DNA from: Thermodesulfobacteriota bacterium
GTDB lineage: Bacteria; Desulfobacterota_D; UBA1144; Nemesobacterales; JAJCZQ01
NCBI GenBank assembly: GCA_965203965.1
Contig: CBDBDR010000002.1
Span: 1-30,514, forward strand
Length of the DNA stretch: 30,514 nucleotides
Reading direction: 5' to 3'
Of this stretch, positions 12,303-23,296 are shown piece by piece. The translations under genes and the position numbers were made by a program. Positions within the stretch are counted from its first letter, which is position 1, and each line of letters starts with the position of its first letter. Below the pieces are notes generated by a model. It was not told the origin of the DNA. It saw only the letters and a program-made list of their open reading frames with translations, and did not search any database.

Positions 12303-14038
12303 TTTTTTTTGAAGGGGGGCATAAAATTTTAATTTAATGACAGATGTAGTACAGGAAATGAATTCAAAAATAATGAAGGTAATAGCAGAAATCAAATACA
12401 GCAGTCAGGAACGATACAACAGTCAGGCAGCTGCAGGGGCCATTCGGCACTCTGCAAGTGCACGATCAAAATCCAGGGAAAGATGGATAGGGCGAGAACG
12501 AGTGCCGCGGAGTACTGCGACTACGGAGAGCCGGGACGGGACGGGACACAGGCGGGATGTCCCGTCCCGTCCCGCATACTAAAATGCGGGACGCACTATA
12601 GTGCAGTGAGCATTCAATACAAGCTTTGCACATAGGCCTGGATGGGACTATGACTATATCTGTGTACTGCATTATACTGTGTGTCCTTGTTTTATGGTTA
12701 TCTTGTTGTCCTAGGCTACAATGATCAGTATAATGTGTTCTTCCACTCGGCTATACTCTTTATATCTCTATTGTGAATGGTAATTCCACCACTTCACGTT
12801 TCATTCTGACAACTTCAGAATCGTCTGGCATATATAATTTTGTGTGATATCTTCGGGGTTCAAACTAAAAGGCGATTGCAATTGTTTCCAGTGGTTAAGG
12901 TTTGTTTGTAATTGTATTGTGTACATTTTAACTCCACAGTATGAACTTGAGACCTCCACATTAATTTTAGCAACTGATCACAGTAAAACCTACTTGACAG
13001 CAACGTCTAGCTGTGTACTCCCAAGATGATCTTTTCACTGCCCGTTTGAGACATGTTTGTACTATTATAACCAGAAACAACTAGGCACCGAAGGTGCTTA
13101 TGCCTCGGTGGAATGTTATGCATACATGCCTGTCTGACTAAATACGCTGAACTGAAATACACAAGCAGTAATGAAAGTCTGCTGTTGCTAGTTGAACACT
13201 ATGCTAGTGGCTGACGACTTATAAAATTATTACGAAGTTCAGCACCTCATATGAGAGACAATAAATCTGACATGGTATTCAATAGTGGCAATGAATATTT
13301 TACATAATATTATACTAGTGAGATGTAAGGAGTAGAGAAAAGAAAATAAACATACACAGTAAAGTTAAACTGCAGCTGTTGTACCTTTCTGTATAGCCTC
13401 GCCTCCAGGCCACTCCCCCTGCTGAGGAGATGGCCTGGTCCAGACTGTCTGCGCATGCTCCAATATTACCAGTAAAACCTGGTAATCAGTAAAACATTGC
13501 ACACGATCGGGGCATTTAACGCACACTATCGAGACATGTCCGTTTCATCATCCTATTGAAACAGCTAGTTTAAACTATGCAAGAAGGCTTCTGGTGCAAA
13601 CATGCTGTTGTACCCAAAAGAAATGGCGTTTTTGGTCCGGAGAGAGTGATTCTAGCACACGGAAGTCTGTAGATTGTCAAGGGGGCGTGGCTAACTTCGC
13701 TCGCAAACCTTCGCGTAAGAATCACGTTGTGCAAGTTGATATTGCGTATTATCAGTGATCACAGCACTAGTTTGTACGTGTAATGGTTACAAAGGTTAGT
13801 GAAATGCACAGAAACAAAGGCTAGAATTACTGTCCGCACTTTGAGGGTAAACGGAAAATCTTCGCGCATGCGTATGCAGTCATTACCAGGCCATTTAGCC
13901 TCGTGACCAGGCTCGTATTAGAGCCTGGTTCATACTGCACGCGCATGCGTCAAATTTTCCTGGAATGTCAGGAAACCGTGTTATTATTAGTAAACTGCCG
14001 TGTTATGTTGACGTCATCAGAACAGCTGTAGCTTATGA

Positions 14039-15452
14039 ATGGAAGCTTTTGAAAGCGCCATCTCCCACGCACTTCAGCGCGTCTGTCCGGGAATTACTCC
14101 CAAACCAGAACAACTTGATGCCATACGTGCAGTTTACAACGGGAAAGACGTATTCGTATGGCTGCCAACTGGATTTGGGAAGTCATTCTGCTACGAGATG
14201 CTCCCGTTTGTGATGGATCACAAGCTTGGTCGAGTGAGTACTACATGCAGCAGCGTCGTTTTAGTGATCTCGCCCCTTATCGCTCTCATGGTTGACCAAG
14301 TTATCAGTTTGAGAAGGCGAGGTATTCGAGCAGCAGTACTGAGTACTGGAAGTGGCGTTGAGAAATCACTTATAGCCAGTGAAGAAGACCTTGCAGAGTG
14401 TAGCTTATTGTATAGTGCTCCAGAATCTCTAGTAATATCTAGATGGAAAGATGTCTTGGAAACTCCTGTGATTTCTAAGAGAATAGTGGCTGTAATTGTT
14501 GATGAAGCACACTGCGTGTCAATGTGGTACGTATATTTATCATGATTATTTTTTATGGTAATGCATGGACTATCAATTCATAGAATCTACTACACTGTAT
14601 AATTTTATTTAGGAGTAAAGACTTTAGACCAGCATACGGCCGCCTTCATGAAATCAGGGCACTTATGCCACCATGTACTCCATTGCTTGCTTGTACGGCT
14701 ACAGCAACCAAGAGCGTCAGGGAGCAACTAATCGTGAGTCTCAATATGGAAGGGTGTGAGCTAGTGTTCACTTCAGTAGACAGGCCCAAATATATACCAT
14801 GAAGTAAAAGGCCGCACTGACATAAAGTCTGACATGGAGCCATTTGTGAATAGTTTGAAGAAAAACAAGATCAGTTCTCCACGTGTGATTGTCTATTGCC
14901 AATCTCTGAATTTTTGTTCTGACTTATATGCACATTTCTTATTTGAACTGGGTGACAGAGCCTACTATCCCATGGGTAGTGAAAAGATCCCTGAAAATCG
15001 TGTTATTGCCATGTTTCACTCTCGGACCAATGAGGAAAACAAGAAGATTGTGCTAGCTAGCTTGACCAAGCCCAAAGGAACTGTACGGATAGTATTTGCT
15101 ACTGTAGCATTGGGCATGGGCATTCACTTAGCAGATGCAGATACCATATTGCATTATGGTGCCCCAACAAGCATTGATGACTACTGTCAAAGTAGTGGAA
15201 GAGGAGGTCGCAGTGGTGGACAAGCCAAGTCAATAATTTTTTGGAAACCTCGTGACTGCCCACGAAAAAAAAGATCCCACTACACCTCATGATCATGAGA
15301 TGGCTGCTGTAAGAAGCTACCTAGAACTTAAAACAACCTGTCGCCGCAAATGGTTACTGGGCTACTTTGGACAATCATCTATGTTTACTGGGGGTGCAAG
15401 TTTGTGTTGTGATATTTGTAGTGATGCATGTCAAACTCTGGATACTCAGTGA
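14039..15452 (+). CDS. RecQ-like superfamily-2 DEAH helicase of the AcademH element (intron 14527-14612; two 1-nt frameshifts in A-runs)
   Basis: Motifs KPEQ, LPTGFGKSFCY (Walker A), VISPLIALMVDQV, VDEAHC, W|SKDFRPAY, TATAT, DRPNI, IVYC, MFHS, VFATVALGMGI, HYGAP, QSSGRGGRSG, and the RecQ Zn module CRR..YFG..CCDIC. Frameshifts near 14788 and 15270. Confidence 0.9.
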
Positions 15453-15566
15453 TGTAATTTTTGTTATGGACAAAAAAGCAATTAATGTATAGTAAACAAA
15501 AATTGAATAGTAACAATAATAAAGTATGCTGTATACAGTAAACAAAAAACTAATTATAAAATGAAA

Positions 15567-17890
15567 CTAATCCTCATCACTATCGCATTCCTCCTCATCA
15601 CTTTCTGTTAGCCCAGCACCTTGGTAGTTTGCAAAAAGAGTTTGCTTCTTTTCAATCCACTCATGTGTTTTCTCTCTGTCCCAAGCATTGAGAGGATCTA
15701 AGGAGAAATTAGGACACGAGGAGTGCTTTCTTCCAGCGATTGGATAGAGCAGCTTTCTGTCTCTTACGACTGAGGCTACTTTAGCAACATCTTGTGCATC
15801 ATACCGAGTAAAGTGATAGCTTGACCCAGTAGGGACACCTGACTGCTTGTCAAAAGATTTGCATATATTTTTGTAAAGCGGTAACAGAACGTGCTGCACG
15901 CTGCAAGGCTTTCTTCCGTAAGGTTGGATCCATGTTGCCTACAATTTCTTTTATCAATTTATTGACATGCTCATTGTGAAGATCGCAGGGAATGTTACAG
16001 CCTATTCCACCCCTGGTGTTTATAAACCTGTCCCACACAATGTGATGAGCCAAATGTGGAGACAGATATGCTGCCACTTGGAATTGAAAGCGGAGTGCCT
16101 GCAAAGCATACTTGGTGTGCCCATAACAAATAAAGTGAGGCATGAGTAATCTATAGCAACGATAGATCCTGTCACCATCGCCCTCAGCCCATGCATCATA
16201 GAACTCTAAGACAATACCTCCAAAATGGCACAAGACGCGTGCGTAGTTGTAGACTCCATCTCCAGATTCATAATCTTGCTTTTTCGTCCAGTCTACTCCA
16301 ATCAATGAGACTCTGTCAACTACCTTAGTAGAAATTGATGTGACAAACGATGACTGTTGCTCCAAGGTGCCTTTGATGATACCTGAAGGTAACTGAAGTG
16401 GAGAATCGGGACTGCTGATTCCTAGAATGTCGCAAGCAGCTGCAACAAGATGACCTTTAACAACGGTAAGGAAAAAGTCAAGAGGTAGCATTGACTTCTT
16501 TCTTTGGCTTTGACGGAACTGTAGTGCGATTGAGTCGGCTCTTAAAATAACCAAGGGTGCCGTGATCACGTGAAGAGTGCTTCTTGTCATTGTAGAGACA
16601 TTTCCAGGCAGCCTATATAATCATTATAATAATTATAATAAAACATTATAGTAAAAATGTCAAAGTATATATTTACCGTAAGAGTGATTACAAGTGTGTG
16701 CCAGTCTTCAAGTTGAGGCTCTAGTAGCTGCAGTGATACGTCGTTGGTCTTGCCATCCATCATATGGCGCTGGGAAGATGCCTGTCGTTCGCAAGTGAGC
16801 TGATCTCCTCCTGACAATACTTTCTCTTCTAGAGAATAGTCATTGCCAAGGTATCCTTGCAGAGACTGCATGATGTCGATCATTTCTGGGCCACACCGCC
16901 TCATTCTTCATTAAAACATCCAGAACAACTACTACTTCAGACATTTTGCCCATCTCCTTCGAGCTATTTGTGCACTATGTGTTTAGGCACTGCCTTTGAG
17001 AGAGGAGCGAGGCATCTGATGTAGAAGGTAAGAAAGCGAGATACAATTGTTACAAGATTGCTCTTCACTGCCTCAAATATCATTTGAACTAGGTAAAAAC
17101 GATTTTGATGTAAATGACAACAAATCTGCAACCTCTCCGGAGTGAGACAGATCAGATGAGGGTAGACGGCTACGAGCTGCCAGTACACTATACATGTGAA
17201 GCATCTCTCCTTGGTTGTCAGAACGAACATCACGTACACGCCGTTTCTTGTCAACATTGTCGCCAATAAACTTGAACGTGGTGCCTTCTTTAATCCATTT
17301 TTGTATTGGATTTCTTATGGAGCTTGCTCACTTGGCCTATTAATGGTAGCGTAGCACTATAACTAATACAGATATTAAGATGATTTAGGCGTGAGTATAC
17401 CTAGACAAAATAGAAAAAAATAATATGTAGCAATAATAGCATAATAGCTATATAGCAGCTATAAACATAGAACATACCTTTTTCTCTACATGAGTGGAAA
17501 ACAGCAAGAGGGATACAAGTGATTGTATTGCAGGTGGTCTTTTCTCTTAAGGTGTCTGGTGTAAGATCAACTGCTGCTCCACTGGTTTCCTTTGGTCTCT
17601 TTGTGAGATTCTGATTGGCTCCTCTGGTCTAGCAGAGTCTTGTAACTCTGCGAAGCTTGTAATTGGAAGCTTTCAAGGTCTATTGCACACTTTTCTAGCT
17701 TTTCTACCCGCCTACAACACTTTGCACAGATGTGCTGAGGCAGGGAATCGTCTGAAGCCACTTGCACGCCAAGAAGATTGACAATTCTTTGGATCCAGTC
17801 TTGCTTCTTCCCAGTCTTGCTCATTAATGAAACACGGTGGTTTGATGGTACATTTGAAAGACACAAACGGCACTGCCATTGCGAGGCCAT
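15567..17890 (-). CDS. AcademH-type transposase (DUF6589-like) with an N-terminal C2-C2 (zf-AD-like) zinc finger; introns about 17401-17477 and 16613-16676; several frameshifts
   Basis: N-terminus CRLC..LPQHICAKC; then YSRLNHLNICISY, FKFIGDNVDKK..VRD.RSDNQGEMLHMYS, GGDQLTCER, LEDWH, AWAEGDGDRI, HTKYALQA, FINTRGG.GCNIPCDLHNEHVNK; acidic C-terminal tail. Confidence 0.85.
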
Positions 17891-18369
17891 GATGAAGACG
17901 GCAGGCGAATTCACGCATTATACGTCATAATCAATAAACAACGAACAGGAAGTACGTAATAATTGATTTTGGGAGCTCGCTCACGCTCTCCGCACGTTAA
18001 TATTTAGCGCATGCGCGTGCAGTATGAACCAGGCTCTAATACGAGCCTGGTCACGAGGCTACAGGCCATTATATAAAAATGGCCTGGATGCGAGGCTACT
18101 TTCTGTACAGCAATCACAATGCAGTATAATAGTTATGCAATCAGAAGCCAATCAGTGCTGACCACTAATTCAACTGGGCGTGTCTATGTTGTTCAGGGCA
18201 CAGCACGTACAGTACAACGAGCGAGATAGCGCGATAAGGGGTTACGGTTGTCATCCGCCTCCTCGCACAGGCCGGAAATCTCAATTACAGGCCGGAAGCT
18301 TCTATAAAGCTCCACCAAAGGTAGCACTACCTGGAGATTGCTTGGAAGATAGCTGATGCTCCTTGCTCC

Positions 18370-21509: not shown

Positions 21510-21680
21510 TTCTATGTTTCTGTTCTCTCTTTTCAATTATTATTTTGTTCAGCAAAAATTAATGTGTTCACATTGTTAAAATGTAGATCTAATCATACGA
21601 TTGATTCAGCTGTGTTCTATCAATAATGTATTTCACATGTACTACACTAGCCTAGCCTCATCCCCAGGCCACACCCTCCT

Positions 21681-23296
21681 ACTACCTACTAACCTCAGTA
21701 TCTACTAACCTCAGTACCTACTAACCTCAGTACCTACTAACCTCAGTACCTACTAACCTCAGTATCTACTAACCTCAGTACCTACTAACCTCAGTATCTA
21801 CTAACCTCAGTACCTACTAACCTCAGTACCTACTAACCTCAGTATCTACTAACCTCAGTACCTACTAACCTCAGTACCTACTAACCTCAGTATCTACTAA
21901 CCTCAGTACCTACTAACCTCAGTACCTACTAACCTCAGTACCTACTAACCTCAGTATCTACTAACCTCAGTACCTACTAACCTCAGTACCTACTAACCTC
22001 AGTATCTACTAACCTCAGTACCTACTAACCTCAGTACCTACTAACCTCAGTACCTACTAACCTCAGTACCTACTAACCTCAGTATCTACTAACCTCAGTA
22101 CCTACTAGCCTCAGTATCTACTAACCTCAGTACCTACTAACCTCAGTACCTACTAACCTCAGTACCTACTAACCTCAGTATCTACTAACCTCAGTACCTA
22201 CTAACCTCTAACCTCAGTATCTACTAACCTCAGTACCTACTAACCTCTAACCTCAGTACCTGCTAACCTCAGTACCTACTAACCTCAGTACCTACTAACC
22301 TCAGTACCTACTAACCTCAGTACCTACTAACCTCAGTACCTACTAACCTCAGTACCTACTAATACCTACTAACCTCAGTATCTACTAACCTCAGTACCTA
22401 CTAACCTCAGTACCTACTAACCTCAGTATCTACTAACCTCAGTATCTACTAACCTCAGTATCTACTAACCTCAGTATCTACTAACCTCAGTATCTACTAA
22501 CCTCAGTATCTACTAACCTCAGTATCTACTAACCTCAGTACCTACTAACCTCAGTATCTACTAACCTCAGTACCTACTAACCTCAGTATCTACTAACCTC
22601 AGTATCTACTAACCTCAGTATCTACTAACCTCAGTATCTACTAACCTCAGTATCTACTAACCTCAGTATCTACTAACCTCAGTATCTACTAACCTCAGTA
22701 CCTACTAACCTCTAACCTCAGTACCTGCTAACCTCAGTACCTACTAACCTCAGTACCTACTAACCTCAGTACCTACTAACCTCAGTACCTACTAACCTCA
22801 GTATCTACTAACCTCAGTATCTACTAACCTCAGTACCTACTAACCTCAGTACCTACTAACCTCAGTATCTACTAACCTCAGTATCTACTAACCTGAGTAC
22901 CTACTAACCTCAGTACCTACTAACCTCAGTATCTACTAACCTCAGTATCTACTAACCTCAGTACCTACTAACCTCAGTACCTACTAACCTCAGTATCTAC
23001 TAACCTCAGTATCTACTAACCTCAGTATCTACTAACCTCAGTATCTACTAACCTCAGTATCTACTAACCTCAGTACCTACTAACCTCAGTATCTACTAAC
23101 CTCAGTATCTACTAACCTCAGTATCTACTAACCTCAGTATCTACTAACCTCAGTATCTACTAACCTCAGTATCTACTAACCTCAGTATCTACTAACCTCA
23201 GTACCTACTAACCTCAGTATCTACTAACCTCAGTATCTACTAACCTCAGTATCTACTAACCTCAGTATATACTAACCTCAGTATCTACTAACCTCA
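21681..23296. repeat. Tandem minisatellite, 16-bp unit CTACTAACCTCAGTA(C/T), about 100 copies
   Basis: Continuous array of ~1.6 kb with a C/T variant position and rare 7-bp TAACCTC slips. Confidence 0.97.

Follow-up and report, generated by a model that had tools for sequence, protein, structure and literature searches.

Two nested elements in the window

The window analysed here is a stretch of 30,514 nt, contig C2 (CBDBDR010000002.1) of a 2-Mb assembly in 17 contigs (GCA_965203965.1); its genes have introns and the region is clearly eukaryotic. Within it lie two cut-and-paste DNA transposons, one inside the other and probably of the helicase-carrying Academ type (AcademH), a short non-autonomous outer element having been struck by an inner one, a defective copy of an autonomous element (Table 1). 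The window has exactly four copies of the terminal 8-mer TAGCCTCG, two on the plus strand (at 13394 and 13896) and two on the minus strand (ending at 18061 and 18098), and these are the ends of the two elements. The subject of this report is a palindrome just inside each end, which, judging from sequence comparison, is probably a working part of the transposition machinery.

The terminal inverted repeats (TIRs) measure 19 nt in the outer element and 63 nt in the inner one (95% identity, complete over the first 54 nt). The inner element sits within one arm of the palindrome at the outer right end: its target-site duplication (TSD), CAGGCCATT, is the last 9 nt of the arm CCAGGCCATT, as the first-pass annotation of this DNA had read it. 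Removal of the inner element and one TSD copy gives the outer right end that is called restored here and was already used in that annotation; uninterrupted copies of the outer family in contigs of three public runs bear it out. The contigs of four public runs were compared with window positions 13200-18300. In runs X16, X18 and X20 there are joints that link 13893-13896 to 18075/18076 through a few AT letters, as expected of outer-family copies that have no insert and one copy of CAGGCCATT. In addition, run X18 has joints from 13385-13393 to 18099-18118, which represent the flanking repeat without the outer element.

In run X18 the word depth of the outer-family parts is 10-50 times that of the inner element, so the outer family is a high-copy, non-autonomous one. 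The outer element is a miniature inverted-repeat transposable element (MITE): short, non-coding and of high copy number, with TIRs, a TSD and ends in common with the autonomous family, namely the terminal 8-mer, the palindrome base and the CGCATGC box. In the public runs, copies of the inner element have 984 extra nt between 17528 and 17541, and they are missing eight single bases of the window copy (14788, 15472, 15868, 15910, 16484, 16897, 16964 and 17075), several of which stand at homopolymer runs, so that some may be assembly errors. The window copy is by these differences a deleted, frame-broken derivative of an element of about 5.1 kb.

Both genes of the inner element point inward, the helicase from the left end and the transposase from the right. 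The best solved relatives of the helicase are RecQ, RECQ5, RECQ1 and BLM (E about 1e-16). The transposase has 2244 homologues at E<=1e-3, and no relatives of it were found in viral contigs. The helicase-transposase pair recurs at loci L165 and L069. An XPG fusion was considered as a tie from DUF6589 to Academ and rejected, the XPG domain being found in none of the eight long transposase homologues scanned. TSDs of 9 bp, the only length tried, are perfect at the outer element, the inner element, a MITE on contig C6, and an autonomous element and a MITE at L165. An excerpt of a paper citing Kojima 2020 (Mobile DNA 11:15) gives the AcademH TSD as 9 or 10 bp. AcademH elements resemble those of the window in being bounded by TIRs, in carrying a transposase and a separate helicase, in their 9-bp TSD and in their presence in an animal genome. 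The TIRs, the 9-bp TSD and the transposase with a separate RecQ-like helicase thus fit AcademH as citing papers describe it; the class assignment follows that description, and the domain matches of the transposase itself were DUF6589 and zf-AD only.

Table 1. Features of the nested elements in the window, and the related element on contig C6
Feature	Position	Strand	Remarks
Outer element, whole span with insert	13394..18098		about 530 bp without insert; non-autonomous
Outer element, left TSD copy	13385..13393	.	9 bp, CTTTCTGTA; from sequence and run X18 joints
Outer element, left part	13394..13895	+	left end module and inner half of right end module
Outer left end	13394-13401, 13405-12, 13431-38		TAGCCTCG, CCT, CCAGGCCA, 18-nt loop, TGGCCTGG
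Outer left end, box side	13452-58		CGCATGC, 13 nt after TGGCCTGG
Outer left palindrome	13405..13438	.	CCAGGCCA, 18-nt interior with 4 extra pairs, TGGCCTGG
Outer right end box	13865..13872	.	CGCATGCG; 13 nt from palindrome
Outer right palindrome, one arm	13886..13895	.	CCAGGCCATT; last 9 nt (13887-13895) are the inner target and left TSD copy
Outer right end, remainder	18071..18098	+	loop ATATAAA 18071-77, arm AATGGCCTGG 18078-87, ATG, terminus CGAGGCTA 18091-98
Outer element, right TSD copy	18099..18107	.	CTTTCTGTA
Inner AcademH-like element	13896..18061	+	4166 bp; TIR and TSD
Inner element TSD	13887-95 and 18062..18070	.	CAGGCCATT, 9 bp
Inner left palindrome	13907..13928	.	CCAGGCTC-GTATTA-GAGCCTGG; 11 nt from terminus
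Inner left end box	13942..13949	.	CGCATGCG
RecQ-like superfamily 2 (SF2) helicase gene	14039..15452	+	Pfam DEAD and Helicase_C; intron near 14530-14615; frame broken
Transposase gene, several exons	15567..17891	-	N-terminal zf-AD-like zinc finger and DUF6589 (PF20231); broken
Inner right end box	18008..18015	.	CGCATGCG
Inner right palindrome	18029..18050	.	CCAGGCTC-TAATAC-GAGCCTGG
C6 element	contig C6		417 bp; TSD GACCAAACC; palindrome at both ends

The subterminal palindrome

All four window ends have the form TAGCCTCG-N3-CCAGGC..GCCTGG-13 nt-CGCATGC(G). CCAGGC is followed by two to four further stem bases, a loop and the complementary arm, and the 13 nt leading to the box contain ACTG. The inner ends read TAGCCTCG-TGA-CCAGGCTC-GTATTA-GAGCCTGG-13 nt-CGCATGCG. 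The spacer is always 3 nt and the distance to the box 13 nt, figures that correct the 3 or 4 nt and about 15 nt of the first-pass annotation; its remark on differing loops within a single element is true of the outer element, the ends of the inner one being identical. With DNA energy parameters each window end forms a hairpin from nt 11 or 12. The outer left end (70 nt) folds at -13.5 kcal/mol, the restored outer right end (70 nt, 10-bp stem) at -14.6 kcal/mol, and the inner left end (60 nt, 9-bp stem including an A-T pair) at -13.6 kcal/mol.

Chance is excluded as the origin of this arrangement, since none of 44 chance matches in viral contigs to the 17-nt start TAGCCTCGNNNCCAGGC (terminus, NNN and 5′ arm) has GCCTGG 17-70 nt downstream. 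The stem-loop proposed earlier stands for the window, where all four ends fold. It had been attributed to every AcademH-type end; the ends examined belong to the clade of TAGCCT[CG]G termini, and the statement holds at that scope.

Complete, TSD-verified elements that were found without using the palindrome have it at every end, 10 of 10: the four window ends, the two of the C6 MITE and four at L165. The last is a single locus found via the transposase protein, in a search of genome contigs with an 11-row alignment. It holds a second autonomous family of 5311 bp (TIR of 70 nt at 97%, TSD GTCCCAGGG), whose transposase exon is 56% identical to that of the window. Its terminus is TAGCCTGG and its palindrome has the stem CCAGGCGC/GCGCCTGG around an 18-nt loop, with an inner stem unlike that of the window. 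The same locus has a 656-bp derivative with the stem CCAGGCCTTC/GAAGGCCTGG. Six further ends are partners of ends through which their elements had been ascertained; four show this folding, a fifth shows it in part and the sixth not at all.

Gene-less derivatives of 290-760 bp have the palindrome at both ends, with covarying stems of their own. The outer (about 530 bp), C6 (417 bp) and L165 (656 bp) elements are like MITEs in being short, non-coding, bounded by TIRs and TSDs, and much more abundant than the autonomous copy. They differ from MITEs only in that each end has its own palindrome, whose loop and inner stem may differ between the ends of one element.

The box 13 nt inside the hairpin is itself palindromic; most families have CGCATGCG here, whereas CACGTG(A) takes its place in the others (C6, L089 and L157 were compared). 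It is kept by the gene-less derivatives and may be the transposase's own site.

Covariation of the stem

Metagenomes were scanned with a pattern made of the terminus, the 5′ arm and the 3′ arm, everything between being free. The scan returned at least 121 stretches; the matches listed comprise 120 loci and 135 ends, 127 of them unique over the first 70 nt, and the figures given below for metagenome-derived ends hold among these listed matches. The unbiased parts of this large set are the inner stem, the loops and the flanks only.

The Watson-Crick run beyond the fixed six pairs has a mean length of 2.44, compared with 0.33 when the interior is shuffled. With the local ends added there are 131 unique ends, and in 116 of them the minimum free energy (MFE) structure pairs nt 12-17 with the downstream GCCTGG; the 15 ends lacking such pairing were dropped from the count by position. 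Among the 116, compared ungapped, the fraction of Watson-Crick pairs at stem positions 7-13 is 0.57-0.88, against 0.26-0.50 with the 3′ arms permuted, and every one of these positions has three to four pair types.

A 29-row alignment was built from 22 of the 30 unique short-hairpin ends, the two inner ends, the outer left end and the four L165 ends. Excluded were six hairpin-only rows from mini elements (L067 and L134 twice each, L151 and L109), L140 and L120, whose origin is doubtful, and the restored outer right end, which is a joined sequence. Paired cells make up 82.8% of the alignment, and its covariation score of 0.165 (shuffled, 0.075±0.015) was reached by none of 500 shuffles. Position 7 is CG in 21 rows, GC in 2 and UA in 2; position 8 is UA in 9, CG in 7, GC in 5 and AU in 1. 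When the register is slid only 16-50% of cells are paired.

The same holds at the level of families. After 20 mini-element ends were dropped, the 96 regular ends fell into 53 clusters at 80% identity. Positions 7-13 are paired in 0.61 of cases among the cluster representatives, against 0.34 on shuffling (maximum 0.43 in 1000 shuffles), and removal of nine representatives from soil-type contigs leaves 0.60 against 0.37. The six basal pairs are fixed across the 53 clusters, where the pattern required the arms, and also in all the ends found without the palindrome. Covariation beyond the fixed CCAGGC, suggested in the first-pass annotation as a check on the stem, is present at positions 7-13.

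The distance between the arms ranges from 10 nt, in the inner element, to 63 nt, and a pile-up at 36 nt is the pattern limit. The largest loop is at least 12 nt in 21 of the 53 clusters. Isolated mismatches showed no strand asymmetry (G.T 5, A.C 6).

The two arms of the stem also differ in base composition, pyrimidines making up 79% of the 5′ arm beyond CCAGGC and purines 79% of the 3′ arm. This polarity, with a pyrimidine-rich 5′ arm in 40 of 43 informative clusters, is not explained by pairing alone. Unpaired interiors are 62% purine, often with GGGGAGG-like tracts.

Substitution within families

Decay within families was measured in the ten clusters that have at least three members (46 sequences), positions fixed by the pattern being left out. 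Substitutions from the cluster consensus number 60/639 in stems (0.094), 63/567 in loops (0.111) and 185/1943 outside (0.095), and 13 of the 60 stem changes are compensated. The roughly equal rates indicate that inserted copies decay neutrally and that pairing is not repaired in place. The stems of different families nevertheless differ and yet pair, as one would expect if transposition continued only in lineages whose stem can pair. A palindrome at a fixed offset in independent families, its covariation and the neutral decay of the copies together argue for selection in the transposing lineages. That gene-less derivatives retain the module suggests that it serves mobilisation and not expression.

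Proposed function of the palindrome

On balance we lean towards reading the palindrome as an end module that acts in cis, forms a structure and is under selection, being used as a stem-loop or cruciform whose base is read by sequence. An end consists of the terminal TAGCCT[C/G]G, a 3-nt spacer, the palindrome, the ACTG block and a palindromic box, which is CGCATGCG or, in some families, CACGTG. Within the palindrome the basal CCAGGC/GCCTGG is invariant, the inner stem is kept paired with its sequence free, and the loop is free in both length and sequence. At some step of transposition the end would be unwound or extruded so that the palindrome acts as a stem-loop or cruciform; the basal CCAGGC duplex may be read by its sequence and the stem by its shape. 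The RecQ-like helicase would be the obvious candidate for making or handling such a structure. It is possible, and we put it forward tentatively, that the helicase opens the end duplex, that the palindrome 11 nt inside snaps into a stem-loop, and that the transposase reads the CCAGGC base together with the shape.

The first-pass annotation had offered two options, recognition of the ends as extruded hairpins or single-stranded DNA, and recognition as inverted binding sites. The covariation of positions 7-13 and the arm spacing of 10-63 nt, which suits a rigid dimer on duplex DNA poorly, favour the hairpin.

A number of points weigh against this reading. The large set was selected for both arms, so the presence of the 3′ arm there carries no meaning, and the set free of this bias is small, with 16 ends. 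All ends examined come from one clade, TAGCCT[CG]G. The clusters share ancestry, so that the shuffle tests overstate independence and their figures are no probabilities. G.T and A.C mismatches are equally frequent, which gives no sign of one strand folding. Correction of quasi-palindromes might contribute to the likeness of the arms in the absence of selection. With a further copy at the terminus, the hexamer GCCT[C/G]G is present three times per end, as would suit plain protein-binding repeats. Finally, the link between helicase and palindrome is conjectural.

The alternative that survives best is nevertheless, in our judgement, rather unlikely. It takes the two arms and the terminal hexamer as three duplex copies of a transposase-binding motif, GCCT[C/G]G, comparable to the subterminal repeats of hAT elements or the palindrome of piggyBac; the inner complementarity would be a by-product of an origin by inverted duplication and of template-switch 'correction' in quasi-palindromes. 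The invariance of the six basal pairs in all ends found without the palindrome agrees with it, as does the lack of a G.T excess over A.C. The autonomous terminus at L165, TAGCCTGG, holds the same hexamer as the 3′ arm there (GCCTGG; in the window, GCCTCG), and a repeat family, D1, aligns termini with arms. There is also a precedent, in that piggyBac and piggyBat palindromes are bound as duplex by two cysteine-rich domains (excerpt of PMC11707139). Against it, arms that vary so much in distance offer no single fixed span for a dimer on B-DNA, positions 7-13 covary with three to four pair types and no conserved sequence, and copies lose pairing at the neutral rate, so correction in place is not what maintains the stem.

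It seems improbable that related ends are preferred targets and that the inner element was drawn to the outer palindrome because hairpins attract insertion, a hotspot that the first-pass annotation had also suggested. The insertion in the window is itself such a case; an end at L102 starts directly after the 3′ arm of another family, and L123 is a possible case. The raw counts show a three- to fourfold excess, with a related terminal 8-mer in 12 of 145 flanks of 40 nt against 2.2% of random windows from the same loci, and an arm in 10 of 145 flanks against 2.4%. On inspection the excess shrinks to 2-3 of 145 ends in or beside a relative's palindrome. L137 (two rows) and L164 are tandem duplications of their own end, L050 is unclear and perhaps likewise, L047 is a chance match, and two rows are the window's own flanks. 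Moreover, the null ignores the clustering of transposons, and the target sites give only a weak logo (G at -9, C at -1 and GCW at -13..-11, each at most 0.28 bit), the window TSD being off this logo. The hotspot claim is not established.

The tandem duplications at L137 (301-420) and L164 (minus strand, about 280-320) comprise the terminal 18-54 nt including flank bases, and they mimic nested insertions. At L115 (2983-3008) two related elements stand tail to head exactly 9 nt apart (CGAGGCTA-ACTAGCTAT-TAGCCTCG), and look as if one target duplication were common to both.

Least likely, and very improbable in our estimate, is a palindrome serving expression or host interaction, through inward promoters in both TIRs, an insulating cruciform or terminator, or the production of hairpin RNA: transcription of both genes does run inward from the ends and the adjoining CGCATGCG and CACGTG boxes resemble what we take to be common animal transcription-factor sites, but derivatives of 290-760 bp, selected only for being mobilised, keep the palindrome without genes, and it would lie upstream of any promoter box and so outside the element's own transcripts.

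If the helicase does open the ends and the palindrome is read as folded DNA, this would be a DDE cut-and-paste element whose ends are recognised by structure, a mode hitherto associated with HUH single-strand transposons such as IS200/IS605 and Helitrons, and it would give a reason why the helicase-carrying Academ lineage has a helicase at all. The terminal 8-mer, spacer, palindrome and box provide a defined minimal end for rebuilding an active element as a tool. Through the very high copy number of the gene-less derivatives, the module and its palindromic boxes are scattered widely in the host genome.

Comparison with other transposons

We know of no subterminal palindrome described for AcademH. 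The literature searched contained no description of an end palindrome or hairpin module in AcademH, Academ with helicase or KolobokH, and no work on the cis requirements of AcademH, Academ or KolobokH ends. The term DUF6589 was met in one paper, on an unrelated subject, and PMC12730594 says nothing of Academ.

Helitrons offer the closest arrangement of parts, a palindrome 11 nt from the element end together with an encoded helicase. In Helraiser, which has a helicase-containing transposase, a 19-bp palindrome 11 nt from the 3′ end is the terminator, and exchange of the stem sequence kept about 90% of activity (excerpt of PMC4778049). Helitrons encode an HUH Rep-helicase fusion, move as rolling circles via one strand, are without TIRs or TSD and have a hairpin at one end, whereas the window elements have TIRs, a 9-bp TSD and hairpins at both ends, and their helicase is RecQ-like SF2 rather than Pif1-like superfamily 1 (SF1). 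No Rep domain was found among the seven open reading frame (ORF) pieces scanned; with the TIRs and 9-bp TSDs this led us to reject a Helitron identity. The parallel, an analogy, is suggestive only.

In IS200/IS605 elements, subterminal hairpins in single-stranded DNA are recognised by TnpA (excerpt of PMC6006769). These resemble the present ends in having subterminal structures at both ends that are read by shape and a few bases. They are prokaryotic, with an HUH transposase and asymmetric ends, and without TSD or TIRs. An identity of this type was likewise rejected, given the lack of a Rep domain in the seven ORF pieces, the TIRs and TSDs, the eukaryotic host and the introns.

The ends of piggyBac and piggyBat are those of a DDE transposon with a palindrome a few bp inside the terminal motif, and the transposase has a zinc-binding DNA-binding domain. 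According to the excerpt cited above (PMC11707139), their palindrome is short, fixed in geometry and bound as duplex. A fixed palindrome site of the piggyBac type was rejected here on account of the variable arm distance and the three to four pair types per inner-stem position.

Further observations

The DNA that received the outer element (18099-18300) is itself a repeat of very high copy number; in run X18 its word depth climbs to about 750,000, where that of the inner element is 3,000-9,000. About 0.8 of the sampled words of the stretch, mostly from the inner element, occur in X16, X18 and X20 (by label, organisms C, B and D). The occurrence of the inner element in runs of three labelled organisms could reflect recent activity, closely related hosts or transfer between hosts.

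At window positions 21653-23296 a truncated end, TAGCCTCATCCCCAGGCC, whose partner end was not found, leads directly into about 100 copies of a 16-bp satellite, CTACTAACCTCAGTAT; being truncated and fused to the satellite, this end was set aside as uninformative.

There are also mini elements of 39-97 bp in which two termini and a single hairpin make up the whole (C1 5516-5554 in G000; L045, L081, L087, L163 and others), and about six of 11 have a 9-bp TSD with at most two mismatches. They were rejected as evidence of folding in vivo, since deletion between two palindromes explains them equally well. Inside the 417-bp element on contig C6 (10110-10132, G000) is a 23-bp remnant made of 5 nt of one end and 18 nt of the other, flanked by the perfect 9-bp repeat CACCATGCC; its make-up suggests an extreme deletion derivative or the scar of an excision.

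The same terminus-spacer-CCAGGC start occurs in other kinds of metagenome, in JGI contigs L100, L144 and L158 and in L056, L067, L105, L133, L138, L151 and L162. L100 has downstream sequence in common with L144 and L158, and their stems are different yet fully paired. A family with a GC-rich palindrome of 51-65 nt is present in several metagenome samples.

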